A stretch of 29,985 bases of DNA from Pseudomonadota bacterium (GTDB lineage Bacteria > Bdellovibrionota_B > Oligoflexia > Oligoflexales > CAIYRB01). Below the pieces are notes generated by a model. It saw nothing but the letters and a program-made list of their open reading frames with translations, ran no database searches and was not told where the DNA came from. Shown in pieces: positions 1-25,225 of this stretch. The DNA lies in NCBI GenBank assembly GCA_031416315.1, contig JANOTL010000117.1, positions 1 to 29,985 on the forward strand, in the 5' to 3' direction. The position numbers and the translations under genes are program-made. The number at the start of each line of letters is the position of its first letter. The first letter of the stretch is position 1.

Positions 1-654
1 GGCGCGCGCGCGCGCCGGGGTTTCGAGGGTGAACAGAGCGCCGCCTTCGGCGAGGTTCAGGCCTTTGCGCTCCGGATGGAACGGGCGGCAAACGTCGTGA
101 TCCAGGATCTGCAGGCAGTCGAATCCCATGATGGTCATCGGCGTGAGGACGTCGAAGCCCCCGGCTACGGCCGCTTTCACGAGGCCCATGCGGATGGCGT
201 CGCGGGCCTTGGCGAGGGCGACGGCGGAGGCCGAGCAGGCGGTGGCGTAGACGAAGGCGGGGCCGGTGATGCCGAGGTGGCGCTTGAGAAACGGGGCGAC
301 GGCGCCGAGCTCGTATTGTGGGTCGAGGAGCAGGGCGGGAGACGGGCTCCACGGGGGCGACTGTCGATTGAACCAGCTTTCAATGCCCGACGTGGTGGTG
401 CCAAGGAAGAGCCCGACCTCGTGCGGCGCATAGTGCTCCAGGGGGCGGAGAGAGGCGGCGAGGGTGCGGGCCAAATCGAAGGCGCGATTGGGGCCGGCGG
501 AGAGATCCGCGATCACCCCGAGCGGCGCATCGAGGAGATGCCGGTACGGATGCACCCGCGTCAACCCGCACCGCGCGCCTTCGCCATGCGCTTCGAAGGT
601 CGCGCCCAAGGCCGAGCGCATCGCCACGCCGGTGATCGCGATCCGCGTTTCCAT
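1..654 (-). CDS. Beta-ketoacyl-ACP synthase (FabF/FabB-like ketosynthase), 3' end truncated by the window edge
   Basis: Not in the ORF track because there is no stop in the window. Manual translation from ATG at 654 gives METRIAITGVAMRSALG...GLFLGTTTSG...GITGPAFVYATACSASAVAL...AGGFDVL...CRPFHPERKGLNLAEGGA. It has the KS active-site TACSAS (Cys codon 235-237) and the CRPF / GxNLxEG motifs, and starts 2 nt after the ACP stop. Confidence 0.9.
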   Translation of the reverse strand, partial: METRIAITGVAMRSALGATFEAHGEGARCGLTRVHPYRHLLDAPLGVIADLSAGPNRAFDLARTLAASLRPLEHYAPHEVGLFLGTTTSGIESWFNRQSPPWSPSPALLLDPQYELGAVAPFLKRHLGITGPAFVYATACSASAVALAKARDAIRMGLVKAAVAGGFDVLTPMTIMGFDCLQILDHDVCRPFHPERKGLNLAEGGALFTLETPARARA

Positions 655-656
655 CG

Positions 657-944
657 CTAGGCCCCCGTGGCGCCGCGCAAATGCCGGTGCGTCACGTCGG
701 CGAGCGTGCGCAAGCTCTTGAGCGCCACGCGGCCTTCGTCGTCGTTGCGGATCTTGAGCCCGAATTTGCGCTCGACGTGCACGACGAGCTCGAGCAAGTC
801 GATCGAGTCCAAGCCGAGCCCCTCGCGGTAAAGAGGCTGGTCGAGCTCGATCTGCTCCGGTTTCAGGTGGCGGAGGTTCCCGACCTTCACGATGAGCTCG
901 GAGAGGTCGCGCGTCACGGCGCCGAGGTCACGGGTTGGGTCCAT
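657..944 (-). CDS. Acyl carrier protein
   Basis: C-terminal part of the 657..1577 ORF: EGLGLDSIDLLELVVHVERKFGLKI contains the phosphopantetheine-attachment LDS motif. ATG at 944 follows GGGAGG; an alternative GTG at 917 overlaps the upstream stop (GTGA). Confidence 0.9.
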   Translation of the reverse strand: MDPTRDLGAVTRDLSELIVKVGNLRHLKPEQIELDQPLYREGLGLDSIDLLELVVHVERKFGLKIRNDDEGRVALKSLRTLADVTHRHLRGATGA

Positions 945-2224
945 TCGTCCTTGCCTCCCACGTGTTGGAAGACGGCGCGAACCTCGGGATTGATGTTGAG
1001 GCGCGCCGTGTCGAGCGAGCGGACGATCGAGTTGGGGGACTCGACGTCGCCGGAAAGGATCGAGGTGAACTCGCGCGCCAACTCCCGGGCGCGCTCGTCG
1101 GCGTCCGGGTCCGCGACGAGAAAGAAATTCTCGACGAGATTTTTCTCGTAAAAGAGCTTCACGAAGCGGTAATAGGACCAAAAGAGGCGGCGGTACGTCT
1201 CTTGATACGCGAGGAGCGGCGCTGGGTCGTAGCCGCCGTTCGCGAGCGCTTCGACGATCGCCGGCGTCGAGAGCCGCGCCGAGTTGAGCGCGATGTGGAC
1301 GCCCGAGCTGAACACGGGGTCGATGAAGCCCGCGCAGTCGCCGATGAAGAGCTCGCGCTCGTGCACGACCTGCCGGCACACGCGCTGGAAGTTGAGGCGC
1401 ATGCGGTACGGCTCGAGCGGCTCGCCGAAGACAGCCGCGCGGATGAACGGCAGGGAGTCGAGGATCTCCCTGCCGATGGCGTCGATCGATTTGCCTTCCT
1501 GGCGAAAGCGCGCGAAATGGTGCGTGCGCAGGACGAAGCCGACGCTCATAACCTCGCCGTTGATCGGGATCGCCCAAGCCCAGCTCGGGATGCGGTCGCC
1601 GCCTTCGACGCCGTCGACGTAGAAAAGATCGATCAGAATGTCGCCGGCCGCCTTGTGATCGGCCTTGGGCGTGTATTTGAAATAGGTGTAGACGCCGGTC
1701 GCGTTGTCGTCGGGCGCGTTCGGGACATACTGATCCGGGTGCACGGAGGCGTTCGTGATGCCGCCGGCGCGGACGAGGAGACGTGCGGTGTGCTCGTCGT
1801 TGACGAGGACGCCGTCCGCGGTCTTCTCCACATCGCGCACGGCTACGGGCTGATGCACGTCGACGCCGAGGGAGCGCGCATGGTCGAGCATCAAGGCGTC
1901 GAAGACCCCGCGGTCGACGTGATAGATCGACTCGTACTTCGGGCTCACCGAGTTGGAGAAGCGGAAGGTCATTTCCTTCTTCGAGCGCTCGGAGTGGAAA
2001 GAGGCGCCGTACTTGGCGACGAAGCCCTGCGCGCGCATTTTGTCCGCGACGCCGATTTCCTCGAAGACGCGCCAGGAGAACGGCAAGAGGCTCTCGCCGA
2101 TCTGGTGGCGCGGGAAGCTCGCTTGCTCGAAGAGACCGACCGAGAGACCCGCGCGCGCCAAGTACGCCGCGCTCGCCGCTCCGGCCGGCCCGGCGCCGCT
2201 GATGATCACGTCGTAATGGGTCAT
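914..2224 (-). CDS. FAD-dependent halogenase-like oxidoreductase (tryptophan halogenase family, carrier-protein type)
   Basis: GAGPAG FAD motif, FPRHQIGESLLP, GFVAKYGASF (Lys at the usual catalytic position), WAWAIP (WxWxIP) and GDCAGFIDPVFSSGVHIA. Confidence 0.85.
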   Translation of the reverse strand: MTHYDVIISGAGPAGAASAAYLARAGLSVGLFEQASFPRHQIGESLLPFSWRVFEEIGVADKMRAQGFVAKYGASFHSERSKKEMTFRFSNSVSPKYESIYHVDRGVFDALMLDHARSLGVDVHQPVAVRDVEKTADGVLVNDEHTARLLVRAGGITNASVHPDQYVPNAPDDNATGVYTYFKYTPKADHKAAGDILIDLFYVDGVEGGDRIPSWAWAIPINGEVMSVGFVLRTHHFARFRQEGKSIDAIGREILDSLPFIRAAVFGEPLEPYRMRLNFQRVCRQVVHERELFIGDCAGFIDPVFSSGVHIALNSARLSTPAIVEALANGGYDPAPLLAYQETYRRLFWSYYRFVKLFYEKNLVENFFLVADPDADERARELAREFTSILSGDVESPNSIVRSLDTARLNINPEVRAVFQHVGGKDEWTQPVTSAP

Positions 2225-5784: not shown

Positions 5785-6604
5785 TCGCAAGCTGCGCTTG
5801 GCGCTCAACGTGCTCGTCGTCCTCCTCTTCATCGTCTTGGCGCTGGCGCCGAGCCTCGGCTATTCGCCGACGAAGATGAGCCTAGCGTCTCGCCTGGCGG
5901 CGCCGAGCGCGCTGCATCCGCTCGGGACCGACAGCATGGGCCGCGATTTGGCGGGTCGGCTCGGCGGCGCGCTGCGCTCGGCCGTCATCCCGATGTGGGG
6001 CGCCGTGCTCGGCGGGATGATGCTCGGCATGGCGGGCGGCTTCGCGGCGCTGATGGCGCGCGGGCGCGGCTCCGCGCGGTACTTCGTGGGCGGCTTCGAC
6101 GTGATCGCCGCCGTGATCGCGAGCATCCCGGTAGGCTTGAGCGCGTTCGCCTGGTCGGCATGGCGGGAAGAGGCCGGCCTCGGCCCCGTCGTCGGTGCTT
6201 TGGCCGCGCTCTTCGCGGTGCGCGCGTATCTACAGCTTCGCGATCTCCATCGGCACGATCGCGAGTTGATGTACTGGCAGGCGCACGAGGCGATGGGCGG
6301 CTCCCTTGCCGGGCGGATATGGCGCTACGGCTTGGCTTCCGCCTGGCGCCGCGCGCTCGTCTCGAGTCTCGGCTTCAACCTGCGCGTCGCGGTGGCGATC
6401 GAGGCTTCACTCAGCTACCTCGGCTTCGGCGTGCAGGAGCCGACGCCTTCCTTTGGCAATCTTCTTGCAGCTCATTTCGAGCTTTATCTCAAGGGCGAAT
6501 GGCACGTCCTACTTGTCGTCGCGGGAGGCTTAGCTTTGGCCGCGGCGACCCCGGCTAGTGCCGTCGCCCTCTTTCCCCTACTCCGTCGACGAGGACTTTC
6601 ATGA
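5777..6604 (+). CDS. ABC transporter permease, OppC/DppC-like
   Basis: APSALHPLGTDSMGRDL and IEASLSYLGFGVQEPTPSFGNLL motifs. ATG 5777 overlaps the previous gene by 8 nt. Confidence 0.85.
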   Translation: MRNRKLRLALNVLVVLLFIVLALAPSLGYSPTKMSLASRLAAPSALHPLGTDSMGRDLAGRLGGALRSAVIPMWGAVLGGMMLGMAGGFAALMARGRGSARYFVGGFDVIAAVIASIPVGLSAFAWSAWREEAGLGPVVGALAALFAVRAYLQLRDLHRHDRELMYWQAHEAMGGSLAGRIWRYGLASAWRRALVSSLGFNLRVAVAIEASLSYLGFGVQEPTPSFGNLLAAHFELYLKGEWHVLLVVAGGLALAAATPASAVALFPLLRRRGLS

Positions 6605-7623
6605 AAAAATCCGCGAACGGACGCGTCACGCTGAGCCTCACGGCGGATTTGCGCGACAACATCTCCATCGCGCACTTCACCGGCACCGATCTGTGGCTGG
6701 CGTCGGACGAGACCGCTTCTTTAGAGCGCCTGGCGCCGAAGGGGCAGGGCTTCGCGGTCGAGCGCACTTTCGCGCTGAGCGAGTTCTTCGAGCTGCCGGC
6801 GGGGCCGGAGAAGGAAGTCGACGTCGAGGGCGTGACGAGCGCGGACGGCTACCTTTGGCTCGTCGGCTCGCACAGCTTGAAGCGGCGCAAGCCGAAGAGC
6901 GGCGACTCGGTCGAGAAGGCGATGGCGCGGCTCGCCACCGTCGACGCCGATCCCAACCGCTACCTGATCGGCCGGATTCCGCTCGCCGTCGATCCGAAGA
7001 CGGGGCGGAGCGAGCTCGTGAAGCGCGCGGGCTCGGCGCGGGCCGCTCAGGTCGATGGCGACGGTGAAGGCAACGACTTGATGCGGCTTCTCCAGAAAGA
7101 TCCGCACCTCGGGCCCTTCCTCGGGATCCCGGGCAAGGACAACGGCTTCGACGTGGAGGGCCTCGCGGCCGCGCCGGACGGCCGTCTCTTCCTCGGCCTC
7201 CGCGGCCCGGTGCTGCGCGGCTACGCGATGATCCTGTCGTTCTCGGTCGAGGAAGAGGGGAAGCACCATCTCGGCGTGAAGCGCCTGGCGAAACACTTCC
7301 TAAAGATGCAGGGGCTCGGGGTGCGCGACCTTTGCGTCGTGGGCGACGACCTTCTCGTGCTGGCCGGGCCGACGATGACCTTGAGCGGGATGGTCGGGAT
7401 CTTCCGCGTCAAGGGCGGGATGAAGCTGAAAAAGGACGCGATCCTGGAGCCTGAGCTGCTCACCGAGCTGTCGGCAGCCGAGGGCAATCCGGAGGGTCTG
7501 GCGCTGGTGCAAACGCGCAAGAGCGGCGCGAAAGTGCTGGTCACGCACGATTCGCCGGGAAAAGGCCGCAAGAAAGGCGACGCGGGGCTCGTCGCCGATT
7601 TGGTCGAGTTGAAGTGGAAGTGA
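6601..7623 (+). CDS. DUF3616-like beta-propeller protein
   Basis: LWLASDE, VDVEG, LVGSHSLKR, PGKDNGFDVEGLA, LGLRGPVLRGYA, GLGVRDL and LAGPTM recognised as typical of DUF3616. ATGA overlap with the upstream permease. Confidence 0.75.
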   Translation: MKKSANGRVTLSLTADLRDNISIAHFTGTDLWLASDETASLERLAPKGQGFAVERTFALSEFFELPAGPEKEVDVEGVTSADGYLWLVGSHSLKRRKPKSGDSVEKAMARLATVDADPNRYLIGRIPLAVDPKTGRSELVKRAGSARAAQVDGDGEGNDLMRLLQKDPHLGPFLGIPGKDNGFDVEGLAAAPDGRLFLGLRGPVLRGYAMILSFSVEEEGKHHLGVKRLAKHFLKMQGLGVRDLCVVGDDLLVLAGPTMTLSGMVGIFRVKGGMKLKKDAILEPELLTELSAAEGNPEGLALVQTRKSGAKVLVTHDSPGKGRKKGDAGLVADLVELKWK

Positions 7624-7630
7624 TTTAGCC

Positions 7631-7736
7631 TTCCCCTTCGGACCTTCCGTTCCTCTGCGCATCAGCGAAAAAACGGTCGGTTGAAAAGTCCCGATCTGCA
7701 TTTTATCGCTGAGGAGCGGAAAGCGCGGAGGGAGAA
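7631..7736. terminator. Long imperfect inverted repeat between convergent genes (candidate bidirectional terminator)
   Basis: TTCCGTTCCTC (7645-7655) pairs with GAGGAGCGGAA (7711-7721), TCAGCGAAAAAA (7662-7673) with TTTTATCGCTGA (7701-7712), and inner GGTCGG with CCGATC. Confidence 0.5.
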
Positions 7737-7739
7737 CTC

Positions 7740-9653
7740 TTAGCGCGGCGACTTGCGGCGGCGCATGCGCGCGACGACGCGCTTCGCCTGCGGCGCAAAG
7801 GCGGCGAGCACGACGGGCGTCGCGAGCAGCAGCAGCAAGATCGCGTGGACCAGTTTGCCGCCGCCTTGAGCGCCGACCGCGCCGCAGGAATCCTTCGCCT
7901 TCTCGTCGTGCGCCTTCTCGCGCACGATGCTCGACGTGCTGCTGCCGGTGGTCGGCTGCGTCTCGACGTTGCTCGGCTTCACCTTCGTTTTCGACTTGGC
8001 GCCGTCGCCGTCCAAAGCGGGGAGCGCTCCGCCTTCAGCGGGGACATCCGCCAGGAAAGCGCCGAGTCCGCGCGCCTCGACCGCGGCGCGCAGAATCGCG
8101 CGCTTCGTGCCCGAGAAGAGCTCTTGCTCCGCGTAGAAGAGGGAAAGGAGGAGGTCGCGAAAGCCGCTCGACGGCTGGAAAAGGGTGACGGCGCGGTACG
8201 TCATCTGGGCGACCTCACCGACAGTCATCACCCCCGCTTTCTGCAGGTCCCAGAGGAGGCCCGAGAACAGCTGGCCGTTCGGGTGCGTGTAGCAGGATTC
8301 GTCGCCGGAGAGCTTCATCCAGGTGGCGTCGCCGTATTTCATCACGTTGTCGCCGCTGCGCAGGCAGCCGACCACCTGGCAAGCGCGTGAGCCGGCCGGG
8401 CAGATGGTCTCGCCGAGGCAGGCGTTGCCCGTGCGAGCGAAGGTGAAGAAGTCGGCGAGCGCTTCGTGGACAGCGAGCGTCTCGTAGCAGCGATCGACGG
8501 TCTTCAAGGTCTGATAGACGACTTGATGCGAGAACTCGTGCGAAGAGACGTCCTGGTCGGTCGCGAGGTTCGCGAGGACCGAGCCGTCGCCGTCGCCGAC
8601 GTTGATCGTGCCGAGGTCGGAGTCGATGACGCCGTCGAGCGAGTAGAATGCGTTGTTCGCATCGCGATAGTGCGGCGCGATCGGCAAGGTCTTGCCGGGC
8701 GGCCATACGTAGCCGAGCGCCGTCATGAAATCGAGCTGCTTCTGTACGTAGTAGTATAGCGACGGCTGCACGAAGCGTGCGTCGGTCGTGGCATAGTCGA
8801 ATTTGTGGTCGGCCGAAAGGGCTCGATCGGCGTCGTCTTCGAGGTAGACGCGCAGGCGCGTGCCGGTCAGCGTGCCGTCTCCGACCAAATCCTTGAGCTG
8901 CGCGCTCGCGACGGCCTCGTCGAGGGAGTTGTTCTCGAAGATCTTCGCGGTGCCGTTGACGCTGAAGAAGCGCTGGCCAAGGCGGAAGGCGTGCGTGGCG
9001 TCGCCGATCCCTTCATATGGCATGCCGCCGGCGGTGAAGCGCGCGCGCCAAGCGGGGACCAAGACGTCGTCGAGGGCTTGCCAGCAGCGCTCGGCGCGAC
9101 CGAGGCGAAAATCATCGGCGTCGTCGCCGCGCTCTTCCAGCGCCTGACGCAGCTCTTCGCCCGTCGCCTCGAGGTCCGTCCACTCACCTGCAGCAGGCGA
9201 GATCGCGGCGCTCGCGACCGGCAGAGCGCCTAGGGTCAGGAAACTGCCGTCGCCGCCGTGATGCGCGCGGATCTCGGCGTCGCAGACCGGGATGCCGGCG
9301 AAGCTCAGGTGATACGAAGCGGACTGCGCGCCCATCTGCTGCGTCAGCCCGAGGCGTTGGCCAGGGTCGCGGACGAGCGCGATCCCCGGCAGAGTCAGCC
9401 GCTCGCGGACGATGGCGGCGACGGCGTGATCGACGTCGATGGCTGCGGCGTTCAAGCGCTCACTGAGCAAGGCCATGCCGTTCGTACCGGTGCGACCGAA
9501 GCTCGCGGCGCGGAAGCCTTGCACGCCGTTCGGCGCGAGGCGGCGCGGCGCCCAGGGCGCGCCGAAGCCCGAAAGCGCGAAAGCGTCGCTCGCGCTTGTG
9601 GCGCTGAGGGTGGCGGCGAGGGCTAAGCGGATGGCGGCGTGGCGAAGGCGCAT
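7740..9653 (-). CDS. Secreted thermolysin/fungalysin-like (M4/M36) zinc metallopeptidase with propeptide and C-terminal membrane anchor
   Basis: Signal peptide (..SASDAFA), NNAFY, GDGDG, HEFSH (HExxH), third-ligand motif AVHEALADFF and HPNGQLFSGLLWDL. The C-terminus is a Cys motif, a hydrophobic helix and a basic tail. Confidence 0.85.
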   Translation of the reverse strand: MRLRHAAIRLALAATLSATSASDAFALSGFGAPWAPRRLAPNGVQGFRAASFGRTGTNGMALLSERLNAAAIDVDHAVAAIVRERLTLPGIALVRDPGQRLGLTQQMGAQSASYHLSFAGIPVCDAEIRAHHGGDGSFLTLGALPVASAAISPAAGEWTDLEATGEELRQALEERGDDADDFRLGRAERCWQALDDVLVPAWRARFTAGGMPYEGIGDATHAFRLGQRFFSVNGTAKIFENNSLDEAVASAQLKDLVGDGTLTGTRLRVYLEDDADRALSADHKFDYATTDARFVQPSLYYYVQKQLDFMTALGYVWPPGKTLPIAPHYRDANNAFYSLDGVIDSDLGTINVGDGDGSVLANLATDQDVSSHEFSHQVVYQTLKTVDRCYETLAVHEALADFFTFARTGNACLGETICPAGSRACQVVGCLRSGDNVMKYGDATWMKLSGDESCYTHPNGQLFSGLLWDLQKAGVMTVGEVAQMTYRAVTLFQPSSGFRDLLLSLFYAEQELFSGTKRAILRAAVEARGLGAFLADVPAEGGALPALDGDGAKSKTKVKPSNVETQPTTGSSTSSIVREKAHDEKAKDSCGAVGAQGGGKLVHAILLLLLATPVVLAAFAPQAKRVVARMRRRKSPR

Positions 9654-9826
9654 GAATCATCTCCCTATGTCCTCTACGCTTTTCGGCAGGTTCCGCGACA
9701 AGATGAAGTCGGCCCGTGACCGGAGGGAAGTCGCCGAAAACGCGCGATTTTCGGCCGATCCTTGCGGGGCGGCCCAAACACGGCTTTGCACGGAACTCGC
9801 GTACACTGATGGAAAGGGAGACGGCG

Positions 9827-11272
9827 ATGCTCGAAAAGCGGGAGCTCAGGATCCACTTGGACCGGAGTCAGCAGCCTGTGGCCTGCGACGTGCGTGGCAA
9901 TCGCACCGACGCGAACGGGACGTTTCGTTTAGCAAACATCAGCCGCAGCGGGATGTTTCTCGAGTGCCCGATCGAACCGGCAGTAAGCGCCGGCGACCAG
10001 ATCCAGTTCTCGATGCGCGTCGATCGCGACGACGAGGAAGTGAGCGGCGTCGCCCGCGTTCGCTGGGTTCGACCGCGCGACCACGGCCCGTACATGCCGC
10101 GAGGGCTGGGCGTTCAAGTGCTCGCGTTCCACGAGAACGCGGAGCGGCGCTACCTCGAGTTCCTCGAGACCTGTTTAGTTCATCTAAAAATCACCGACCT
10201 CATGGAGCCGAATTTCGTCGACTTGGCGCCGCAGACGACGGTGTTGGAGGCGGTGCGCCGCATTCGCGACCGCGCCGCGCCGTGTGCCATCATCCTCGAC
10301 GCAAAAGGGGGCGCAGCCGGCATCTTCACGCGGAGCGACCTTTTTCGCGTCGTCGACGAAGGCGATGCTTTGGCGCGCACGGTCGAGACGGCGATGACCC
10401 GAGATCCCGTGACGATCTCGACCGACCAGTCGACGGACGACGCATACAGCGTCATGCGTTACGGCTCGCTCAATCATCTGCCGGTCATCGAGGACGGCGT
10501 GGTCGTCGGCGTGCTGTCGACGCGAGACCTCGTCCGCTTTTGGGCGGAGTTCATGGATCTGCAGGCCAAGCGTCTCGCCAAGAGCTACGAGCGCGCGATG
10601 AGCGTGATCGCCCACGATCTGCGCACGCCCCTCGGACTGATCAAAACGACGAACCTGATGCTGACGACGGGCGCCGTGACTGCGCAGGAGTATCTGGGTG
10701 GCGGCCTCGGCGACTCGATCGACTCGAGCTGCGAGATGATGATGGGTCTGATCGACGACATCCTCGACCTTTCCACCCTCTCGACACAAGGCGTGCGACT
10801 CAACCCCACCGACGTCGATCTGGCAGAGATCGGCCGCAAGGTGCATCGCTGGTTCGAGCCCGCCGCGCGCTCGAAGCGCATCACCTTGGGCCTCGAGATC
10901 TCCCCCGGCCTCCCGAGCATCACTGCCGATCCTCTTCGCCTAGAGCAGATTCTGGTGAACCTCGTCGGCAACGCCTTGAAGTTCACGCCCGAGGGCGGGC
11001 ACGTCCTCCTGCGCCTCGAGCAGCGCCACTCACGCGTCGCCGTATCGGTGATCGACGACGGGCCGGGGATTGCGCCGGCCGAGCGTCAGCTGCTGTTCAA
11101 AGAGTTCGCGCGTCTTTCGAACCGTCCGACCAAAGGCGAGCGTAGCACCGGCCTCGGCCTCGCCATCGTCAAACGCCTGATCGAAGCGCACGGCGGCAGC
11201 ATCGAGGTCGTCTCAGAGCTCGGGCATGGCTCGACGTTTCGAATGCTGCTGCCGATCGACGCCGTCCAGTAG
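9827..11272 (+). CDS. Cytoplasmic sensor histidine kinase with N-terminal PilZ domain and CBS pair
   Basis: PilZ: EKRELR...NISRSG...ARVRW...GLGVQ. CBS: ITDLM, GIFTRSDL, AMTRDPVT, HLPV, GVLSTRDL. Kinase: IAHDLRTPL, NLVGNALKFT, DDGPGI, STGLGLAIVK. No TM helix. ATG 9827 follows AGGGAG (ATG 9809 is an alternative). Confidence 0.9.
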   Translation: MLEKRELRIHLDRSQQPVACDVRGNRTDANGTFRLANISRSGMFLECPIEPAVSAGDQIQFSMRVDRDDEEVSGVARVRWVRPRDHGPYMPRGLGVQVLAFHENAERRYLEFLETCLVHLKITDLMEPNFVDLAPQTTVLEAVRRIRDRAAPCAIILDAKGGAAGIFTRSDLFRVVDEGDALARTVETAMTRDPVTISTDQSTDDAYSVMRYGSLNHLPVIEDGVVVGVLSTRDLVRFWAEFMDLQAKRLAKSYERAMSVIAHDLRTPLGLIKTTNLMLTTGAVTAQEYLGGGLGDSIDSSCEMMMGLIDDILDLSTLSTQGVRLNPTDVDLAEIGRKVHRWFEPAARSKRITLGLEISPGLPSITADPLRLEQILVNLVGNALKFTPEGGHVLLRLEQRHSRVAVSVIDDGPGIAPAERQLLFKEFARLSNRPTKGERSTGLGLAIVKRLIEAHGGSIEVVSELGHGSTFRMLLPIDAVQ

Positions 11273-11390
11273 CCTCGACTCGCTTCTTGAATATTCATGA
11301 TCGTGTTAGGCTTTTCGAATCAATCCCCGCGACCATCTTTTATCCGCAGCGCGCCGCTTGGGCGCGCCGCTGCTTTGAGGAGTTTGACTG

Positions 11391-13121
11391 GTGAGCAAAT
11401 TTGTCAAGCATCTAACGATGTTGGCACTGATAACCGCGGCGGTTCAGTGCAAGACTCCTGCCGGTCAAGACACGGCGAAGGTGAAGGAAGGTTACGACGG
11501 AGCGAACCATCCGCTCTCGACGTTCGGCGTATCTCTGATGCGCTACGACCAGGTGCCGACTGCCGGCAGTCTCTCGGTGCAGCCGTGGCCCGGCTACTAC
11601 TGGGCGACGTATCGCGGCGGCGTCGCCTATCGCTGGACGCAGTACCTGAACTTCGACAGCGGCACGCTCGGCAACATGAGCTGGAGGGACTTCGCGTACA
11701 CGCCGATGGACGCGACCGCGGCGAAAGCGCTCGGCGACGAGCAGATCAAAGCGCTTTCGCCCGCCGAAAAATTTGACCTTCTCAATGACAACTTCAGCTT
11801 TCCGCTGACGGGCCGCGCGCTCTCCGACACGAAGGCCGCCGTCGGCGCGAACGGGGAAGTCCCGACCTGGTTCGGCATCTGTCACGCCTGGGCGCCTGCC
11901 GCATCGCTTTCGCCCTACCCGGGCAAGCTCGTGCGGGTGAAGAACAAAGCCGGCCAGTGCGTCACGTTCTATCGCGACGACTTGAAAGCCCTCGCTTCGC
12001 TTTCCTTCGACGCAGGCTATGGCGCCGACTACAACACCATGTTCCTCGGCCAACGTTGCAACCTGGCCGAAGGCCAGATCACCCGCGACGCCCAGGGTCG
12101 CATCACCAACGCCGAGTGCCGCGACACCAACCCGGGCGCGTTCCACCTGGTGATGTCGTCCTTCATCTCCAACAACAAGCCCGTCGTCCTCGACGTCACC
12201 TACTCCGACGAAGTCTGGAACCAGCCCGTCCACAGCTACAAGTTCGCGTACTCGAACGTCCGCAGCGCCAACGGCTTCGACTCGTTGAACCATGTGCGCG
12301 CGCCGGGCACGGTGTACCTCGTCGACGTCGACTACGAGCTCAAGTACATCGTCGAGTCGAACCCCTCGATCAGCGAGGAGCAGCTCGAGGCCTACATCAA
12401 GACGGCCAACTACAAGTACTCGCTCGAGCTCGACTCCGAGTACCGCATCATCGGCGGCGAGTGGAACTGGGCCAGCATGGGCGCGGCCGGCATCCGCATG
12501 CCGGATTTCGTCTGGACGCCCTCGGAGAAGAACACCAACAATGGCGACGTGTCCTCGACGAAGATCGAGTCGCTGATCGCGGGTTCCCTGTCCGCTTCCC
12601 CCGACTTCTGCCAAGGCGGCGACCTGCCGACGCCGACGCCGAACCCGGACCAGCCGACCCCGAGCGATCCCGAGCCGACCCCGACCCCGGATCAGCCGAT
12701 CGTCAACCCGGACCAGCCGGGCAATCCGGGTCAGCCGGGCGGCCAGCGTCCGCCCTTGCCGAAGCTGAAGAAGAAGAAAGAGCAGCGTCCTCCGAACGAC
12801 GATCCGAAGCAGACGAAGCAGTGGGAATACACGGTTCCCGTCCGGAAGCTCGAGTACAAGCCGTACCTCGATCCGAACGACGCCTGCGTCATGCAGTCGA
12901 ACAAGCTCGAGTGCGGCAAGACGGTCGGTTGCGCTTGGACCAGCGTCACCAAGGCCTGCATCAACATGCGCTCGCAGAAGTGCTCGGACTACCCGGCCGA
13001 GGACATCTGCAACGTGAAAGACCTCTGCAAGTGGTCGGGCCAGGTTTGCGAGGCGAAGGACATCGTGAAGAAGCGCAAGAACAAGCAGCTCCAGGGCCAG
13101 TCGCAGAACCAGAAGCCGTAA
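11391..13121 (+). CDS. Exported transglutaminase-elicitor (Phytophthora GP42-like) family protein, putative lipoprotein
   Basis: PWPGYYW, LSPAEKFD, VPTWFGICHAW (Cys codon 11880-11882), DTNPGAFH, EVWNQPVHSYK, IIGGEW, PDFVW. Then a Pro-rich linker, Lys-rich patches and a Cys-rich tail. GTG start follows GAGGAG. Confidence 0.85.
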   Translation: MSKFVKHLTMLALITAAVQCKTPAGQDTAKVKEGYDGANHPLSTFGVSLMRYDQVPTAGSLSVQPWPGYYWATYRGGVAYRWTQYLNFDSGTLGNMSWRDFAYTPMDATAAKALGDEQIKALSPAEKFDLLNDNFSFPLTGRALSDTKAAVGANGEVPTWFGICHAWAPAASLSPYPGKLVRVKNKAGQCVTFYRDDLKALASLSFDAGYGADYNTMFLGQRCNLAEGQITRDAQGRITNAECRDTNPGAFHLVMSSFISNNKPVVLDVTYSDEVWNQPVHSYKFAYSNVRSANGFDSLNHVRAPGTVYLVDVDYELKYIVESNPSISEEQLEAYIKTANYKYSLELDSEYRIIGGEWNWASMGAAGIRMPDFVWTPSEKNTNNGDVSSTKIESLIAGSLSASPDFCQGGDLPTPTPNPDQPTPSDPEPTPTPDQPIVNPDQPGNPGQPGGQRPPLPKLKKKKEQRPPNDDPKQTKQWEYTVPVRKLEYKPYLDPNDACVMQSNKLECGKTVGCAWTSVTKACINMRSQKCSDYPAEDICNVKDLCKWSGQVCEAKDIVKKRKNKQLQGQSQNQKP

Positions 13122-13152
13122 CATCCGCAATGCCGGATCAGGAGGATAGAGC

Positions 13153-14964
13153 GTGAAGGTCAAGAATCTCGGATCCAAGCACTCGAAGCTGGCGCTGCTC
13201 GGCCTTTGCGTCGGCGCGGCAGCCATCGGCGGCTGCAAAGCCAAGCAAAACGCCTCCGGCGTCAAGGATCTCGGCATCGTCGACAACACCGATGAGCAGA
13301 AAGCGAAGGCCTTCGTCGCCTACCAGGACTTCGAGGACAAGAACTCAAACGGTAAGCAGGACCCGGATGAGCCGTGGATGGTGCACCTCGGCATCTGTCC
13401 GAAGGACATCAACCTGCTCCAAGAAACGCCGGTGGTCGACGGTGAGACGCTCGGCCGTGACGTCTGCAAAGAGAACCTTGATCTCTATCAGCCGATCCCG
13501 AAGGCCGACTATCAGCGCCTCCTGGCGTCCGACATCGGCGTGAAGGACGGCTCGACCGACGATCTCCTGAAGACGGTCCAGCGCCGCGAAGCGAAGATCA
13601 AAGAGATCGAGACCACGATCGCCGAGTCTGAGAGCTCGGGCGCGCCGGCTGCCGTAATCAAGGGCTGGAAGGATCAGCTCGCCGTAGAGCAGACCGAGTT
13701 CGACAAAGAGAAGAAGAAGCTCGCCGAAGAGACGACCAAGCAAGGTCACTTGGTCATGATTCTCGAGAACCTCGCCAAGACGAAGGGCGGCATCGTCGCC
13801 AAGTACATGGGCGCGCAGAAGGTCGAGAACAAGCGCTACGCCTCGGCGATGAAGCCGTTTGTCGACCAGCGCGCCAAGAACGACGCGTTCAAAGAGTACG
13901 TGAACCAGATCGAGTTCCACGTCACGACCGCGGAATACAGCTACGTCGGCGCGCACCAGGCATGCAGCTTCGGCGAGAAGAAGCAGGACGACTGGTGGCG
14001 CTTGGCCACGCCGACCGAGGCGAAGATCTACGGTAAGTACAAGCTTCCGAAGGACTACGCGACCAACGGCGGCGGCCAGGGGCAAGGTCAGGGCCAAGGC
14101 CAAGGCCAGGGTCAGAGCCAAGGTCAGGGTCAGCAAAACCAAAACCCGACGCCCGTCATCGTCCCGCCGGATTCGGTGTGGGTCGGCTCGTTCATCGACG
14201 AGCTTCCGGTCGAGGAAGAGCCGGTCATCGTGAATCCGACGCCGGTCCAGCAGCAGCAGGGTCAAGGCACGCAGCAAGGCCAGCAGCAGGCCGCGCAGCT
14301 AGCCCAACAGCAAGACCCTGATCGCGATCCGGCCGAATGGCGCCGCCAGCAGCAGCAGCAAAAGGGCAACCCGGCCTGGGAAATCTTCGAGGCGAGCGAG
14401 GAGAACTTCTTCAAGTACTCCGACTACCACGTCGAGCCGCCGTCGGCGTTCTCCACCGAAGTCCAATGGGGCCGCAACTACGGCGTTTATTACAACCTGA
14501 AGTCCGGCTCGTTCGGCGGTACCTACGCGCAAGCCGGCCTCTTCGAGCGGAAGGCCCGCGCCCTCTGCGTGAAGAACATGACGGCTCAGAAGTGGGAGAC
14601 CGGCAAGGGCTGGAAATACGTGATGACCAACGTCATCGCGAAAGATCCAGACACCAAAGACTTCGCCGACTACTGGTCCTGCCGCTACGTCGCCACGAAG
14701 GACTCGAAGGCCCAAGGCTCCAACACTGCGTACAAGTACGGCACCGCCTACGTCCGCCAGAACATCACCACGGCGATGTCCTTCGGCAAAGAGCAGTGCG
14801 ACCAACGCCTGAAGGCCCTCAACGGCGCCGGCAAGCAGACCTGCGCCGCCGACAAGCGCGAGTACGAGACCGAGATCGTCGACTCCAAGGGTGACAAGGT
14901 GAAGAACAAGCTTCAAGCCCACTGTCGCAACCTGTCGACCTGGAACTTCGGTACCGCTCAGTAA
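13153..14964 (+). CDS. Putative lipoprotein with coiled coil, C-type-lectin-like (DUF1566-like) motifs and Gln-rich inserts
   Basis: GTG follows AGGAGG. Signal peptide ends AAIGGC. DKNSNGKQDPDE loop, heptad-like region, AHQAC...WRLATPTE...VWVG...ALCVK, plus (GQ)n and polyQ tracts. Confidence 0.75.
   Translation: MKVKNLGSKHSKLALLGLCVGAAAIGGCKAKQNASGVKDLGIVDNTDEQKAKAFVAYQDFEDKNSNGKQDPDEPWMVHLGICPKDINLLQETPVVDGETLGRDVCKENLDLYQPIPKADYQRLLASDIGVKDGSTDDLLKTVQRREAKIKEIETTIAESESSGAPAAVIKGWKDQLAVEQTEFDKEKKKLAEETTKQGHLVMILENLAKTKGGIVAKYMGAQKVENKRYASAMKPFVDQRAKNDAFKEYVNQIEFHVTTAEYSYVGAHQACSFGEKKQDDWWRLATPTEAKIYGKYKLPKDYATNGGGQGQGQGQGQGQGQSQGQGQQNQNPTPVIVPPDSVWVGSFIDELPVEEEPVIVNPTPVQQQQGQGTQQGQQQAAQLAQQQDPDRDPAEWRRQQQQQKGNPAWEIFEASEENFFKYSDYHVEPPSAFSTEVQWGRNYGVYYNLKSGSFGGTYAQAGLFERKARALCVKNMTAQKWETGKGWKYVMTNVIAKDPDTKDFADYWSCRYVATKDSKAQGSNTAYKYGTAYVRQNITTAMSFGKEQCDQRLKALNGAGKQTCAADKREYETEIVDSKGDKVKNKLQAHCRNLSTWNFGTAQ
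14068..14145 (+). repeat. Coding (Gly-Gln)n tandem repeat
   Basis: GGGQGQGQGQGQGQSQGQGQQNQN encoded with mixed codons (ggc/ggg/ggt, cag/caa). Confidence 0.9.
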
Positions 14965-14998
14965 CGCGCGCCTCGCGCGGTCCTTGCACCGAACATCG

Positions 14999-15035
14999 AG
15001 GCGCGGCGGAATCGATCCGCCGCGCCTTTCTTCTT
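14999..15035 (+). terminator. Intrinsic terminator-like hairpin inside the lipoprotein cluster
   Basis: Perfect 12-bp stem AGGCGCGGCGGA / TCCGCCGCGCCT, loop ATCGA, followed by TTCTTCTT; starts 34 nt after the 14964 stop. Confidence 0.7.
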
Positions 15036-15050
15036 CGAGGGAGATTCTTC

Positions 15051-16526
15051 GTGCGCGCTTTGATTTGCCTGACCGTGGCTCTTTCGATCGCCAGCTGCAA
15101 GGCGCGCCGCGACGGCGCGGCGCTGAAATCCGAGGGCGATGGCGCTGCGACCACGGCGGCCAGCGAAGCTCCAATGCCGGGGCTTGATCCGTCCGCGCCC
15201 ACGTCCACGCTCACCGTCGGCGCCGTCGCGCTCACCGCGGGAGAGGTCGGGGCCATCGCGACCGAGCTCGACCAGACGATCACCCAGGGCATGCAGGCCG
15301 CGGGCGTATTGTCGGCCGAGGGCCTTGGCCTCGGCCTGGAGAAGCAGCAAAGCGCGACGGACGTAAAGAAGTCGATCGATGAGCTCCGTTCGCAGCTCGC
15401 GGACGCGCGAGTCCAGCTCGAGCGCTTGAAGGAGCTCGGTGACGACTCGTCGACGCGCATGGAGCTGGAGAAGACCGTCAACCGGCTCATCCAGCAGCTC
15501 GACGGTAACGGCGGCGAGCTGCAGCAAGCAGAGCAAAAGCAGGTCGAGGATCAGAAGCAGCAGCAACAGCAGCAACAAAAGCAGCAGCAAGATCAGGCTC
15601 AGCAGAAGCAGCAGAAGGCCGAAGAAGAAGCCCGCGCCAAGCAGAAGGCCCAGGATGACGAGCTCGCCCGGCAACAGCAGCTGGCGAAGGATGCGACCGA
15701 AAAAGCCGACAAAGAGCAGAAAGCGAAAAAGAAGCGCGAAAAATGGAAGAGCGACAAAATTGCCGAAATCCAGCGGCTGATCCGTGACATCGCCAAAAGC
15801 CAAACCACGCGTAGCGGCGCCGGCTGTACCGTGAAAGCGTTCTCGACGGCCTCGGCCTTGGACTTGAACCAGTTCGGCTCCTGGCCGTTCTCGTCGGCGA
15901 CGATCGACGACCTTTCGGATCGCCAGATCTGGAGCGGCGCCGCGGACCATTACCTGGCCGCAGGCACCGACTACTCCGTCAGCGGCGGCATCGCGACGTA
16001 CATCCTAATGCGCTACCCGGACGACTGCGGCTCCACGTTCCGTCCCAGCGCCAACTGCGAGTACATGGGTGAGGTGAAGAAGGGCTCGAACACCTTCCTA
16101 ATCTGCGGCGTCGTCAGCGGCGCCGGCCGGTTCAACTCGGCGGTCCTTCTTACAAACGGCGTCAGCTTCTATCGGCAGAAGACCGAGGTCACCGACCTTT
16201 CTATCGGCCGCACACCCGATCCCGCAAACGTCAGCAAGATTTTCGGAAACGACTTCATGACCTGCAGCGGCATCGCCGTGAAGAACAAATACATGTGCGC
16301 GTCGTCGGCCTACGACTGCAAGGGAATCGTGGAGGACAACAAGTACATGTGCGAGTCCAACGATTGCAAGGCCATCGTCGGGAAGAACTACTATCTTTGC
16401 GACACTTTCGACTGCAAGGCCATCGTCTCCGGCAACGCCACCCAATGCGACTCCAAAGACTGCATCGCCGCGGTCACGAAGAACGGCCAGCTCTGCGACC
16501 ATGACGGCCACCGCAAACCGAACTGA
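15051..16526 (+). CDS. Putative lipoprotein with Gln/Lys-rich coiled coil and C-terminal Cys-rich repeats
   Basis: GTG follows GAGGGAG. Lipobox IASC, QQAEQKQVEDQKQQQQQQQKQQQDQAQQKQQK...KAKKKREKWK, and five C-terminal CKAIVxxNxxxC-type units. Confidence 0.8.
   Translation: MRALICLTVALSIASCKARRDGAALKSEGDGAATTAASEAPMPGLDPSAPTSTLTVGAVALTAGEVGAIATELDQTITQGMQAAGVLSAEGLGLGLEKQQSATDVKKSIDELRSQLADARVQLERLKELGDDSSTRMELEKTVNRLIQQLDGNGGELQQAEQKQVEDQKQQQQQQQKQQQDQAQQKQQKAEEEARAKQKAQDDELARQQQLAKDATEKADKEQKAKKKREKWKSDKIAEIQRLIRDIAKSQTTRSGAGCTVKAFSTASALDLNQFGSWPFSSATIDDLSDRQIWSGAADHYLAAGTDYSVSGGIATYILMRYPDDCGSTFRPSANCEYMGEVKKGSNTFLICGVVSGAGRFNSAVLLTNGVSFYRQKTEVTDLSIGRTPDPANVSKIFGNDFMTCSGIAVKNKYMCASSAYDCKGIVEDNKYMCESNDCKAIVGKNYYLCDTFDCKAIVSGNATQCDSKDCIAAVTKNGQLCDHDGHRKPN
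16263..16499 (+). repeat. Five tandem ~16-aa two-Cys repeats
   Basis: CSGIAVKNKYMC / CKGIVEDNKYMC / CKAIVGKNYYLC / CKAIVSGNATQC / CIAAVTKNGQLC. Confidence 0.85.
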
Positions 16527-16537
16527 AGGAAAACCCA

Positions 16538-17899
16538 ATGCGTCTCGAGCACATTCTGACCCTCCTTGCGTTAAGCGTCGGCTGCCGCACTCCCGATGCG
16601 CCGCAAACGGCGCAAGTAAAGACCGACGAGGTCGTCGCCATTCCCGCGGTGCCGGGCGAGGCGACCGCAAAGTCGATGACGGAAGCGATCGCCTACTGGG
16701 TCGAGCGCGGCGACGTCATTCGCGCCTCCTGCCCGGCGCAGGGCGAGCCGAAGCGGCTCGCGAAAGTCGACAAGACCGGCTGCAAGGTCCTTGCGAAGAA
16801 ATCGGTCGCGGATTTCAAGAAGGCGTTTACCGAGCTCTATCTGAAGGAAACGGGCAAGCCTTCCCTCAGCCGCGCCGAAGCCGAGATGCTGGACGCCGCC
16901 ATCGCGACGGCTTCGATCGACAACGTGCTGCGCTCGAAGGTGAAAAAGCTGCCGGAAGGCGAGCTCGATGACTTGATCGCCAAGTACTTCCCGATCATCG
17001 AGAAGGCGATGGGCACGCCGCCGTACACGCCGCAGGCGACGCGTGCGACGGGCGCCAACCTCACCGAGGCGCCGTTCTTGAGCGAGCTCGTGTCCGTCCC
17101 TTTCGGCACCTTGTCGCTGACCCCGGCTTACGCGCTCTTCGACACCGCGAAGGCCAAGGTCATCAAAGTGAAGGCGAGCGGCGCGACCTGCGGCGCGGTC
17201 ATCACCGGCGTCAACATCGGCCAGAACCAGCTGAACCTCGGCGGACTCAAGAGCCAGGGCGGTGGCCTCTACGCCAGCAACTTCGCCGACAAGGCGCTCG
17301 AGATCAACTATTTCCAGGTCGTGATGTCGCAGACGACCTATAACTTCGGCATTTGCACCATCACCGCCGCCGTGGAAATCGAGGGCGACGGCCCGGCGCC
17401 GAGCGTCAGCGGCTACGACTTCGACGGCTATCGCGCGTGCGTCGGTCTCGCTTCCGGCGCGGCTTGCCCGCAGATTGCCGACGCGGTCACGGACGCCTGT
17501 CTCGCGAAGAACGGCAACACAAGCTACTGCGGCGACTGCTCGGTTCTCTGCTCGAAGCCCGTGTCGCAAGATAACGGCGGCGGCGGCGACGCCTGGAAGC
17601 AGGCCGGGACGATCTTCTACAACGGCGGCTTCGTGGCGGCGATCGACGTCGGCGTGGTCCCCAACGCTTTCGTACAGCGAATCAAGATCGAGAGTCCGAC
17701 GCAATGCCCGGGCGCGTCGATCCTCTCCGTACGCTCGAAGCCGCCGCTTTTCGCCGAGACCTTGAAGCCGACGAAAGCTGCGGGCGCGAACACCTGGAAG
17801 CCGAACGGCGGCGACGGCGCGGTTCTCAGCGCCGTCGTGGTGTCCCTCAACGGTCCGATCATCTTCGGGGGCTGTCAGATCCCGGTTTACGTTCAGTAG
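16538..17899 (+). CDS. Hypothetical multidomain putative lipoprotein
   Basis: Signal peptide ends LSVGC; starts 11 nt after the previous stop with AAGGA upstream. Two beta-rich segments flank a 6-Cys module (CVG..CPQ..C..CGDCSVLC). Confidence 0.75.
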   Translation: MRLEHILTLLALSVGCRTPDAPQTAQVKTDEVVAIPAVPGEATAKSMTEAIAYWVERGDVIRASCPAQGEPKRLAKVDKTGCKVLAKKSVADFKKAFTELYLKETGKPSLSRAEAEMLDAAIATASIDNVLRSKVKKLPEGELDDLIAKYFPIIEKAMGTPPYTPQATRATGANLTEAPFLSELVSVPFGTLSLTPAYALFDTAKAKVIKVKASGATCGAVITGVNIGQNQLNLGGLKSQGGGLYASNFADKALEINYFQVVMSQTTYNFGICTITAAVEIEGDGPAPSVSGYDFDGYRACVGLASGAACPQIADAVTDACLAKNGNTSYCGDCSVLCSKPVSQDNGGGGDAWKQAGTIFYNGGFVAAIDVGVVPNAFVQRIKIESPTQCPGASILSVRSKPPLFAETLKPTKAAGANTWKPNGGDGAVLSAVVVSLNGPIIFGGCQIPVYVQ

Positions 17900-17906
17900 C
17901 TGGCTG

Positions 17907-17952
17907 CTGGGTTCCTGCTAAAAATGTCTTGGCGTTTTTAGCTGGAAGCCGG
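17907..17952. terminator. Inverted repeat between convergent genes (candidate bidirectional terminator)
   Basis: TTCCTGCTAAAAATGTC-TT-GGCGTTTTTAGCTGGAA, with a perfect GCTAAAAA/TTTTTAGC core extended by wobble pairs. Confidence 0.55.
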
Positions 17953-17985
17953 GACCGAGGAATTCAAAGGTTCTCGCGTCGTCGC

Positions 17986-18453
17986 TCACTCGCATGGAAG
18001 TGTCAGTGCGGAATCGACGGCAGCCTTCAACTCCACTTCCCCCTCATCCCCCAACCCGCCGACATGCTCCCAAACCACGTTCATGTGACAATCCAAGACC
18101 CACGTGGTCGGCGTTCCCGTCCCGCCCAAAGGCCCCCAAACCGCCCGTTCCGCATCCATCAGCACTGGATGACTCGGCTGGTGCCGCGCGATCCACTGCT
18201 GAAAGTCACGGGCCGTGCGATCGAGGCCGACCTCCACGAATTGGGCGCGGGGCTCGTTGCCGTAGGAACGCGCCATCGCGGCGAAGCGCGGGGCGTTTTC
18301 ATTGCACGGGCCGCAGCGGAGCTGGAAGCCTTCGACGACGAAGATTGCCCCTGGATGATCGGCCGAATCGTAGACGGTACCGGCGGTCGGCGCGTTCATC
18401 CAGGGCAGTTGGATGACCAAGGTCGATGCCAAGGCGGCAGCAGCTAGAAACAT
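17986..18453 (-). CDS. Exported thioredoxin-fold protein (TlpA/ResA/AhpC-TSA-like)
   Basis: C-terminal half of the 17986..18891 ORF. From ATG 18453: hydrophobic N-terminus, FVVEGFQLRCGPC (CxxC), PVLMD and GTPTTWVLD (cis-Pro motif). Confidence 0.8.
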   Translation of the reverse strand: MFLAAAALASTLVIQLPWMNAPTAGTVYDSADHPGAIFVVEGFQLRCGPCNENAPRFAAMARSYGNEPRAQFVEVGLDRTARDFQQWIARHQPSHPVLMDAERAVWGPLGGTGTPTTWVLDCHMNVVWEHVGGLGDEGEVELKAAVDSALTLPCE

Positions 18454-18458
18454 GGTGT

Positions 18459-22895: not shown

Positions 22896-24908
22896 TCAAT
22901 CGAGAATTTGCGCCTTCAAGATCGTGTCGCCCATCTCCAGCCGGTCAATGACCTCGAGGCCCGAATCGACCTTTGCGAAGACGGTGTACGCGCCGTCGAG
23001 ATGGAGGTTCGGCGCATGGTTGACGAACCACTGTGAGCCGCCGGTATCCTTACCGGCCGTGGCCATGCCGACGAAGCCGCGCTGATGATTTAGCGGCGAA
23101 AGCTCCTCGCGGATCAAGTAACCGGGGCCGCCGTAGCCGTCGCCGCGCGGATCGCCGCCCTGGACGACGAAGTTCGGGACGACGCGATGGAACGTCAAGC
23201 CGTCGTAGTAGCTGGAGCGCACGAGCGTGACGAAGTTGTGGGCGGTGAGCGGCGCAAGGTCGAGCATTTGCAGCACGAAGGTGCCGCGCGTCGTCTCGAT
23301 CTGGACCTTCGCCGTTGAGGCGGCGCGCAGGGCGGCGAGCGGCGCGGTCATCCCACGGACATTGCTGGCTTCGGGCACGCGGTCCATGACGTTGGTGCCG
23401 GTGAGGGCCTCGTAGGCCGCGGCGGCGGCGAGCGCGACGGCGCGGGCGTCGTCGCTGAGCGCGGCTTCAATGAGCGGCAGCTGCGCGGCGTCGCCGATCT
23501 TACCGAGCGCGTCGAGGAGGGCGACCTTCCCTTCAAGGTCGTCCGGACGCACCATCGCCGCATAAGCTGCGGCGAGCGGCGCGGCGAAGTCCCGCCAGCC
23601 GGCCCGAGCCGCGATCTCCGCAACCGTGGAAGACATCGCGAGGTCGTGACGGCCGAGCGCCGCGAGCAGGTCCGATTTCGCGTGCTCGGTGAGCAGCGCG
23701 TCGTCGAAGCCGGTCAGGGCCAAGACGGCGGCAGAGGCGATTTTCAGCTTTCGATCGTGCAGAAAAGGCAGGATCGCGGCGAAGGCGGCCGGCGTTTCGA
23801 CCGAGCCGAGCGCCGTGAGGGCCGAGGCAGTGAGCTCGGGCTCGCTCGTGAGAAGGCGCAGCGCCACCGGCGCGGCGCGATCGGGGGCGATCGCGGGAAG
23901 GGATTCGAGCGCGGCGCCGCGGATCCAGGTCGAGCGCTGCGTGTCGGCGATGACGGAGACGACGGCGTCCGCTGCGGGCGCCGCGTCGGTTGCGATCTTG
24001 CCCAAAGCCTCGAGCGCCTGGACGACCGCTTGCGGCTCGTTCGCGGGGTCGAGGATCGAGGCGACGAGCGCTTCGCGCGCGGCGGGCGCCTTGTAGTTGC
24101 CGAGCGCGCGGAGCGTCTCGGTCTTCACGCCGAGAGACTGGACGCCTTCGCCGTCCAGCGCGGCGAGGAGAACTTTGAGGAGCTGCGGCGAGGTCGAGGC
24201 GAAGTTCTTGCCGAGGGGACGCGCGAGGAGGGCGCGCGCCTCCGGATTCTTCGCGGCGCGGTAGGCGCGAACGAGCAGCGTGCGTTGCTCCTCGGGGAGC
24301 TGGCCGCGTTGCCGGGCGAGGGCGAACGCCGCCGAAACGGCGTCGGGCGTCGAGAAGCGCGCGATCTGCAGCAAGCGGTCCAAGGTCGCGACCGGCGCGA
24401 GCTGCAGATCGACGTTGTTCAGGAAGAGATGGCCGATCGCCTGGGCCGCAGGCGCGCGGATCGCCGTCGTCGGAGCGTTCAGCGCGGCGTAGAGCAACGG
24501 CAGATCCGCTTCTTTGCCGAGGCGGCCGATGCCGAGGATGAGCTCCTTCATGACGCGCGCCGAAGTCTCCAGCGGCAGGCGGCCCTTCAACGCAGTGAGC
24601 GCGGCGTCGCCGCCGAGGATGCCGAGCGCAAAGGCGGCGTTGACCCGCACCTTACCCGAGACGTCGGCGAGGAGCGGCGTGAGCAAGTTGACGCCTTCCG
24701 GGGCACCGATGCGGCCGATGGCAAGGGCGGCGCGGGCGCGCAGGCGCGAGGAGCCGTGCTGCGCGGCGAGGGCGAGAACCGCATCGCCACCGCGACGATG
24801 ATCCTCGGCTTCGTATACAGCGTGCTCGAGGCGGTCATCGGCGCGCGCCATGGAGGGCATGACGAGGGCGAACGCGAGCGCGAGCGGCGGCAGCAGAGAC
24901 CTGATCAT
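22896..24908 (-). CDS. Exported HEAT-repeat protein with C-terminal cyclophilin-type peptidyl-prolyl isomerase
   Basis: Signal peptide (..PSMARA), HEAT-like repeats (RARAALAIGRIG, VRVNAAFALGILG) and YDGLTFHRVVPNFVVQGGDPRGDGYGGPG..GMATAGKDTGGSQWF..HLDGAYTVF. ATG 24908 follows GGGGAG. Confidence 0.92.
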   Translation of the reverse strand: MIRSLLPPLALAFALVMPSMARADDRLEHAVYEAEDHRRGGDAVLALAAQHGSSRLRARAALAIGRIGAPEGVNLLTPLLADVSGKVRVNAAFALGILGGDAALTALKGRLPLETSARVMKELILGIGRLGKEADLPLLYAALNAPTTAIRAPAAQAIGHLFLNNVDLQLAPVATLDRLLQIARFSTPDAVSAAFALARQRGQLPEEQRTLLVRAYRAAKNPEARALLARPLGKNFASTSPQLLKVLLAALDGEGVQSLGVKTETLRALGNYKAPAAREALVASILDPANEPQAVVQALEALGKIATDAAPAADAVVSVIADTQRSTWIRGAALESLPAIAPDRAAPVALRLLTSEPELTASALTALGSVETPAAFAAILPFLHDRKLKIASAAVLALTGFDDALLTEHAKSDLLAALGRHDLAMSSTVAEIAARAGWRDFAAPLAAAYAAMVRPDDLEGKVALLDALGKIGDAAQLPLIEAALSDDARAVALAAAAAYEALTGTNVMDRVPEASNVRGMTAPLAALRAASTAKVQIETTRGTFVLQMLDLAPLTAHNFVTLVRSSYYDGLTFHRVVPNFVVQGGDPRGDGYGGPGYLIREELSPLNHQRGFVGMATAGKDTGGSQWFVNHAPNLHLDGAYTVFAKVDSGLEVIDRLEMGDTILKAQILD

Positions 24909-25225
24909 ATGGATATGCTCCCCTGAAGTTAGTGAAAAAGGACTAACCTCGGGGTCGGGGGATGTCAATTGACCGTTCGCGGCGCTTCGCGAGCGCTCGT
25001 CTTCCCCGCCAATTCGACCTTGCGGCGCGGAGGACGCGGGGGGCTCGATTTACTGCGGTTTTAGCGCCGCCGGCAGCGCCATGACGGTAAACGCCGGCGT
25101 CTCGTGACAGCCTTCTTTGTAGCCCTGCCCCTTGACGCCTTTGTCGCTGAAGATCTTCACCGTCGTACCTTGCGGCGACCCGGCGGGCAGGTCCAGGTCA
25201 TAGACCGCGCGTCAGGCGGTAAAGA

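Follow-up and report, generated by a model that had tools for sequence, protein, structure and literature searches.

A GP42-family transglutaminase-type lipoprotein gene beside two glutamine-rich lipoprotein genes at a variable site in an Oligoflexales genome

The stretch of DNA analysed here (the window) comprises 29,985 nucleotides of contig JANOTL010000117.1 from a bacterium of the order Oligoflexales (genome G000; 6.36 Mb, 65% GC, 5,507 genes by our own gene caller). Its central feature is gene 1 (11391..13121, + strand), which encodes a 576-residue transglutaminase-type lipoprotein of the GP42 family (PF16683). The first-pass annotation had proposed that this enzyme and the two exported, glutamine (Gln)- and lysine (Lys)-rich proteins encoded behind it form an operon of an enzyme with its dedicated substrates. 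All three open reading frames (ORFs) were confirmed on the + strand, with gene 2 at 13153..14964 (603 residues) and gene 3 at 15051..16526 (491 residues); a fourth lipoprotein gene in the same run had been overlooked (gene 4, 16538..17899, + strand, 453 residues, without a Gln tract). Genes 2, 3 and 4 match the regular-expression lipobox used to assign lipoproteins, gene 1 has an atypical one (AVQC), and all four carry the same short tag downstream of it. The gaps between genes 1 to 4 are, in order, 31, 86 and 11 bp. Upstream of gene 1, a PilZ-CBS-histidine kinase gene (9809..11272, + strand) provides a conserved landmark. Between genes 2 and 3 lies a GC-rich 13-bp hairpin followed by a T-rich tail (14998..15028, + strand), which occurs once in the genome and looks like a terminator or a processing/stability element; no hairpin was found between genes 1 and 2, and no sigma-70 promoter match was found at the locus.

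From N- to C-terminus, gene 1 encodes a lipobox, the tag after the lipidated Cys, the catalytic domain, a Pro/Thr linker, a Lys-rich patch, Cys-rich repeats and a Gln/Lys tail. A hidden Markov model search of 11391..13121 matched the TGase_elicitor domain (PF16683) over residues 45-384 (11523..12542, + strand; E 4e-47, 161 bits against a cut-off of 25), and the structure of GP42 (PDB 3tw5) was matched at E 2.5e-36. The call of a GP42-type enzyme with an intact WFGICHAW motif and Cys164 was borne out by this match and by the position of the motif at residues 160-167 (11868..11891, + strand). Its ‘CH’ pair, Cys164-His165, falls on the catalytic position that is mutated in 3tw5, and Asn277, within the Pep-13-like strand EVWNQPVHSYKFAY (12210..12251, + strand, by alignment to 3tw5), and Asp207 also align with that structure. 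We take the Asp207 column to be that of the GP42 helix Asp, D328. An alignment and tree of 125 of 139 homologues (the 14 without the motif were omitted) had Cys in 125/125, His in 95/125, Asn at the 277 column in 122/125 and Asp at the 207 column in 21/125; gene 1 was placed with weak support (0.78) and no close clade.

PMC10318531 describes a CH motif partnered by Asn or Asp (Asn on beta-2 or Asp on a non-core helix), tabulates 1,017 bacterial family members and annotates the family as transglutaminase in a classification table; PMC9105555 and PMC7720654 give GP42 background. Because the CH motif, Asn277 and Asp207 are kept and more than 1,000 bacterial members have been tabulated, gene 1 is, on its sequence, a further member of a known and widespread family, and its transglutaminase activity would follow from that of GP42. 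The family was present in 38 of 41 genomes searched (G000 included), in mostly multiple copies and also in Myxococcota; seven genes in G000 score above the Pfam cut-off. Gene 1 thus resembles Phytophthora sojae GP42 (PDB 3TW5, PF16683) in its domain match, CH motif, Asn and Asp residues and Pep-13-like strand, but differs in being a lipoprotein with a tag after the Cys, in having seven paralogues per genome and in its unique C-terminal extension (12627..13118, + strand). This extension consists of the Pro/Thr linker, KKKKEQ, the Cys-rich repeats (a PSI-like match at E 0.23 only) and a KKRKNKQ..Q tail, and relatives of it were found neither elsewhere in the genome nor in 151 homologous loci. 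In another genome, three PF16683 genes stand in tandem (G065:C145:14335-19472).

Family membership leaves room for a different kind of target. The enzyme's targets could be foreign or unrelated proteins, such as those exposed on prey or on particles, and its activity that of a transglutaminase, a deamidase or a papain-type protease; genes 2 to 4 would then be adhesin-like lipoproteins with no link to its chemistry. The family lies within the papain-like superfamily according to PMC10318531; high copy number and variable C-terminal domains also fit such a role, as does the scarcity of Asp at the GP42 helix position among homologues, though gene 1 has kept it. We consider this explanation improbable, since features of a proven transglutaminase are retained in gene 1 (the Cys-His pair, Asn277, Asp207 by alignment and the Pep-13-like strand), and the same paper’s classification table annotates the family accordingly.

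The Gln tracts that drew attention to genes 2 and 3 are real features of the DNA. Those of gene 2 are (GQ)n (14074-14136), QQQQGQGTQQGQQQAAQ (14248-14298) and RRQQQQQKG (14341-14367), all on the + strand, and together ((GQ)n, QQQQGQGTQQGQQQAAQLAQQQ, RRQQQQQKG) they span 14074..14367. Gene 3 has a Gln run (15558-15614) and the Lys patch KAKKKREKWK (15720-15749), which jointly occupy 15558..15749 on the + strand. Every Gln or Lys tract quoted in the first-pass annotation for these genes was therefore located, and its statement that such Gln tracts are confined to them within the window held, with every other window gene having at most 5 Gln per 20 residues. An independent Logan contig, probably from the source sample, covers 11147-18458 with 2 differences, which argues that the tracts are no assembly artefact; they are encoded by mixed CAA/CAG codons, and the Gly codons are mixed too. 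At least 12 Gln per 20 residues occur in 7 of the 5,507 called genes, among which gene 3 has the most (15) and gene 2 reaches 12. The pairing of Gln-rich genes with the enzyme is an unusual juxtaposition, seen in one genome only.

Gene 2 (Gln 9.5%, Lys 10%) is a near-orphan. Its only homologue is P0002 (E 1.8e-17, 25-32% identity), and none were found in a 5.8-billion set, JGI metagenome contigs, the ESM Atlas, Pfam, NCBIfam or PDB, or in 130 other genomes of the phylum. One weak match, in G036, was confined to the GQ tract and was discounted as an effect of composition. An Lcl_C/C-type-lectin-like domain was likewise rejected for gene 2, which is not among the 5 PF07603 matches and 1 PF00059 match of the genome and reached an hhalign probability of 0.3%. 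Gene 3 combines a probable coiled-coil carrying the polyQ tract and Lys patch, a small globular domain and C-terminal Cys-rich repeats. A homologue search turned up a single relative of its N-terminal and middle parts, a paralogue in the same genome (G000:C188:21205-22362; 35% identity) that shares the small globular domain and has QQQQQQQ in the same probable coiled-coil region, on a contig without a PF16683 gene. The Cys-rich repeats of about 16 residues (window 16236-16500) match small stand-alone ORFs of 123-218 residues in 8 of 60 relatives and gave no family match.

The tag that genes 1 to 4 share, C[KR]-x4-12-[SAGT]-x-[VLT]-K-[DESAGTH] after the lipobox, is carried by about 60 other genes of G000 (65 matches, of which 2 were judged false by eye, leaving 63). 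Its second half follows 46/104 lipobox Cys-Lys/Arg pairs as against 24/516 other lipobox Cys residues, and of 14,548 internal Cys residues, 20 fit the complete pattern. It was also seen in P0002 and in 6 of 1,540 genes from relatives’ loci. The tagged proteins are otherwise unrelated, and the tag is a candidate sorting signal. In Bacteroidota, the lipoprotein export signal (LES), one of several known sorting motifs of this placement, is a short charged motif right after the lipidated Cys that is found on unrelated passengers. The tag follows the same idea of placement but has a different sequence and belongs to a different lineage, and a role for it in export is a candidate only; it constitutes a lead separate from the question of cross-linking.

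Membership in the tagged class has consequences for how the composition of genes 2 and 3 is read. The tagged class is rich in Lys (median 6.9% vs 4.5%, p 1e-10), with gene 2 having the highest Lys content of all 63, and its members tend to stand in tandem: 0.74 adjacent pairs would be expected and 8 are observed, of which the cluster of genes 1 to 4 accounts for 3. Lys richness and much of the co-location are therefore explained without any enzyme-substrate link. Tagged lipoproteins also make up 4 of the 11 proteins with at least 10 Gln per 20 residues (Gln20), and Gln tracts are enriched among them even when this cluster is left out (2/59 vs 7/5,442, p 0.004). On whether such tracts are equally common in unlinked lipoproteins, a condition under which the proposal of dedicated substrates would lose its force, the answer was divided: they are rare (2/59 other tagged and 1/625 other lipoproteins), yet the unlinked paralogue of gene 3 has one. 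Low-complexity 20-mers in general were found in 10/61 tagged lipoproteins, 88/568 other lipoproteins and 142/3,949 other proteins, and lipoproteins of this genome often contain low-complexity linkers built from Gly, Ala, Thr or Pro.

If the enzyme and Gln-rich partners formed a functional unit across the family, comparable neighbours should recur near homologues. Genes were called around homologues in 151 loci. The order itself supplied 102 of these, covering close relatives as well as two further paralogue groups; 33 were named loci, and 16 came out of searches centred on Myxococcota. Gene calling recovered the enzyme gene in 149 of the 151; L152 and L181, where it was uncalled, were dropped, and L174 and L175, which duplicate L046 and L041, were left out as well. 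Neighbours counted as near if they lay no more than 3.5 kb from the enzyme gene, the minimum ORF was 45 residues, and many loci stop at contig edges. In this sample, which was not aimed at Bdellovibrionota proper, Patescibacteria or Vibrio, Gln20 of at least 10 occurred in 0/560 same-strand and 0/488 opposite-strand near genes, compared to 1/792 farther genes. A combined count of at least 14 Gln and Lys (Q+K) per 30 residues was reached by 1/560 same-strand near genes and 1/792 farther genes; in the sole near case (L131), the repeat lies upstream of the lipoprotein’s likely start. The same pipeline picked up genes 2 and 3 in the window, and no homologues of genes 2 to 4 were found in any of the 151 loci. 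The predicted enrichment of Q/K-rich genes next to homologues did not appear, and an operon with dedicated substrates is unsupported as a feature of the family, since the neighbours in 149 homologous loci are without comparable tracts. Gln-rich neighbours are no general rule for the GP42 family. In one PF16683 subgroup (L078, L081 and L082), the enzyme gene is flanked by same-strand neighbours of recurring length, about 290 residues upstream and about 430 residues downstream; gene 1 has no such partners.

The site itself varies among relatives. Orthologues of the PilZ-CBS kinase were found in 6 of 11 family genomes. In a genome of the same genus (G001), the gene 4 orthologue begins within the kinase gene (64% identity) and genes 1 to 3 are missing there; in the other five kinase-bearing relatives the downstream genes differ, and in none of the six do genes 1 to 3 stand behind the kinase. 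The site behind the kinase is variable, and genes 1 to 3 are lineage-specific there, because the genes downstream of it differ across the six relatives. A second insertion site is seen on the other side of the kinase, where genes for a DUF3616 protein and an M4 peptidase (window 6601-9653) lie between an ABC-permease-like gene and the kinase in G000 and not in G001. No repeats or insertion sequences were found at the gene block, and a foreign origin by composition was unsupported, with third-position GC content (0.83-0.88) inside the genome range.

Taken together, we favor, with a probability of roughly 0.55, the reading that gene 1 is an ordinary GP42 member surrounded by orphan lipoproteins that are sorted together with it, form a lineage-specific patch and serve as substrates opportunistically at most. 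Several observations weigh against this reading. The block that G001 lacks behind the kinase coincides precisely with the enzyme gene and the Gln-rich pair. Gene 1 is the sole tagged one among the PF16683 paralogues of its genome, and its own tail is Gln/Lys-rich (13 Q+K per 30). P0002 has Gln tracts of its own, one in the loop matching the (GQ)n tract of gene 2 and another near its end, and this retention of a Gln loop suggests selection for Gln. Conditional on the tagged class, two or more of gene 1’s 3 tagged neighbours would belong to its 4 Gln-rich members by chance with a probability of 0.009; this figure is post hoc, comes out of a scan of very many windows and treats neighbours that are not independent. 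Elsewhere in the family, a PF16683 lipoprotein (L094:1-1737, - strand) has QQQQQQQQQ directly after its lipobox, possibly a self-cross-linking tether.

These observations would fit a dedicated local cassette in which gene 1 and gene 2, perhaps with gene 3, were gained or kept together, and in which the enzyme, on its Pro/Thr stalk, would cross-link Gln loops to Lys patches, its own tail included, and so build a covalent mesh or an adhesive patch on the surface. Two of the seven top Gln tracts of the genome sit here, the tag is common to the genes, and the 31-bp gap without a hairpin between genes 1 and 2 and the joint absence of genes 1 to 3 from G001, where gene 4 is retained, fit as well. 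We nevertheless regard such a cassette as rather unlikely. None of the 560 same-strand neighbours at homologous loci has a tract, the polyQ paralogue of gene 3 is unlinked to an enzyme gene, and the hairpin precedes gene 3. The arrangement is known from one genome, hence co-inheritance cannot be demonstrated, and the block may have accreted piecewise, because G000 has other extra genes by the kinase that G001 is without. The further suggestion that genes 1 and 2, and perhaps 3, came together recently as a covalent glue complete in itself, this being one of several occasions on which bacterial members of the family independently recruited Gln/Lys-rich substrates, is equally tentative.

Building on the family, motif, tag, tract rarity, variable site and lack of a conserved neighbourhood observed here, we infer the location, activity and substrates of gene 1 under the favored reading of an ordinary GP42 member as follows. 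Gene 1 would encode a lipid-anchored protein that probably reaches the cell surface together with the roughly 60 lipoproteins sharing its tag. Cys164 would form a thioester with a protein Gln and then transfer it to Lys or an amine, as presumed from GP42, giving cross-links between envelope or surface proteins. Genes 1 to 3 would have been added lineage-specifically at the variable site behind the conserved kinase, where tagged lipoproteins pile up in tandem. The Gln tracts would be family traits of genes 2 and 3, a flexible loop and a coiled-coil respectively, and one of many kinds of low-complexity linker. Both proteins are plausible acyl donors and acceptors in the compartment of gene 1 and may be cross-linked opportunistically by it or by another paralogue, without the three genes forming a conserved, dedicated enzyme-substrate operon.

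How a dedicated cassette would work is illustrated by Bacillus subtilis Tgl, which, according to PMC6490927, spot-welds pre-assembled spore-coat proteins, with SafA/C30, GerQ and YeeK as substrates. Gene 1 belongs to a different family with a different catalytic arrangement, and its predicted place of action is a Gram-negative surface and not a spore coat. To our knowledge, the substrates of Tgl are not adjacent polyQ lipoproteins. Our literature search, which subscription papers mostly lay outside, turned up no paper describing a GP42 operon in bacteria or the native substrates of these enzymes. Bacterial enzymes of this family are numerous (the 1,017 tabulated) and multicopy in the Oligoflexales. 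Should genes 2 and 3 be true substrates, the locus would offer an enzyme together with its substrates and would speak for an isopeptide-cross-linked surface layer in a Gram-negative bacterium; the glue, if real, would give a bacterial GP42 enzyme its first set of native substrates.

Some further features were noted in passing. In G000, a lipoprotein gene with a Pro/Gln tract (9 per 20; G000:C130:43878-44720, - strand) is oriented divergently to a WAGHCNGF-type PF16683 paralogue and lies about 1.1 kb upstream of it; no such lipoprotein was seen beside 20 orthologues of that paralogue. Within the window, the genes called at 1-2224 (- strand) we take by eye to be flavin-dependent oxidoreductase/halogenase-like, acyl-carrier-like and ketosynthase-like, and at 22896-24968 (- strand) a HEAT-repeat and cyclophilin fusion adjoins an M14 carboxypeptidase.

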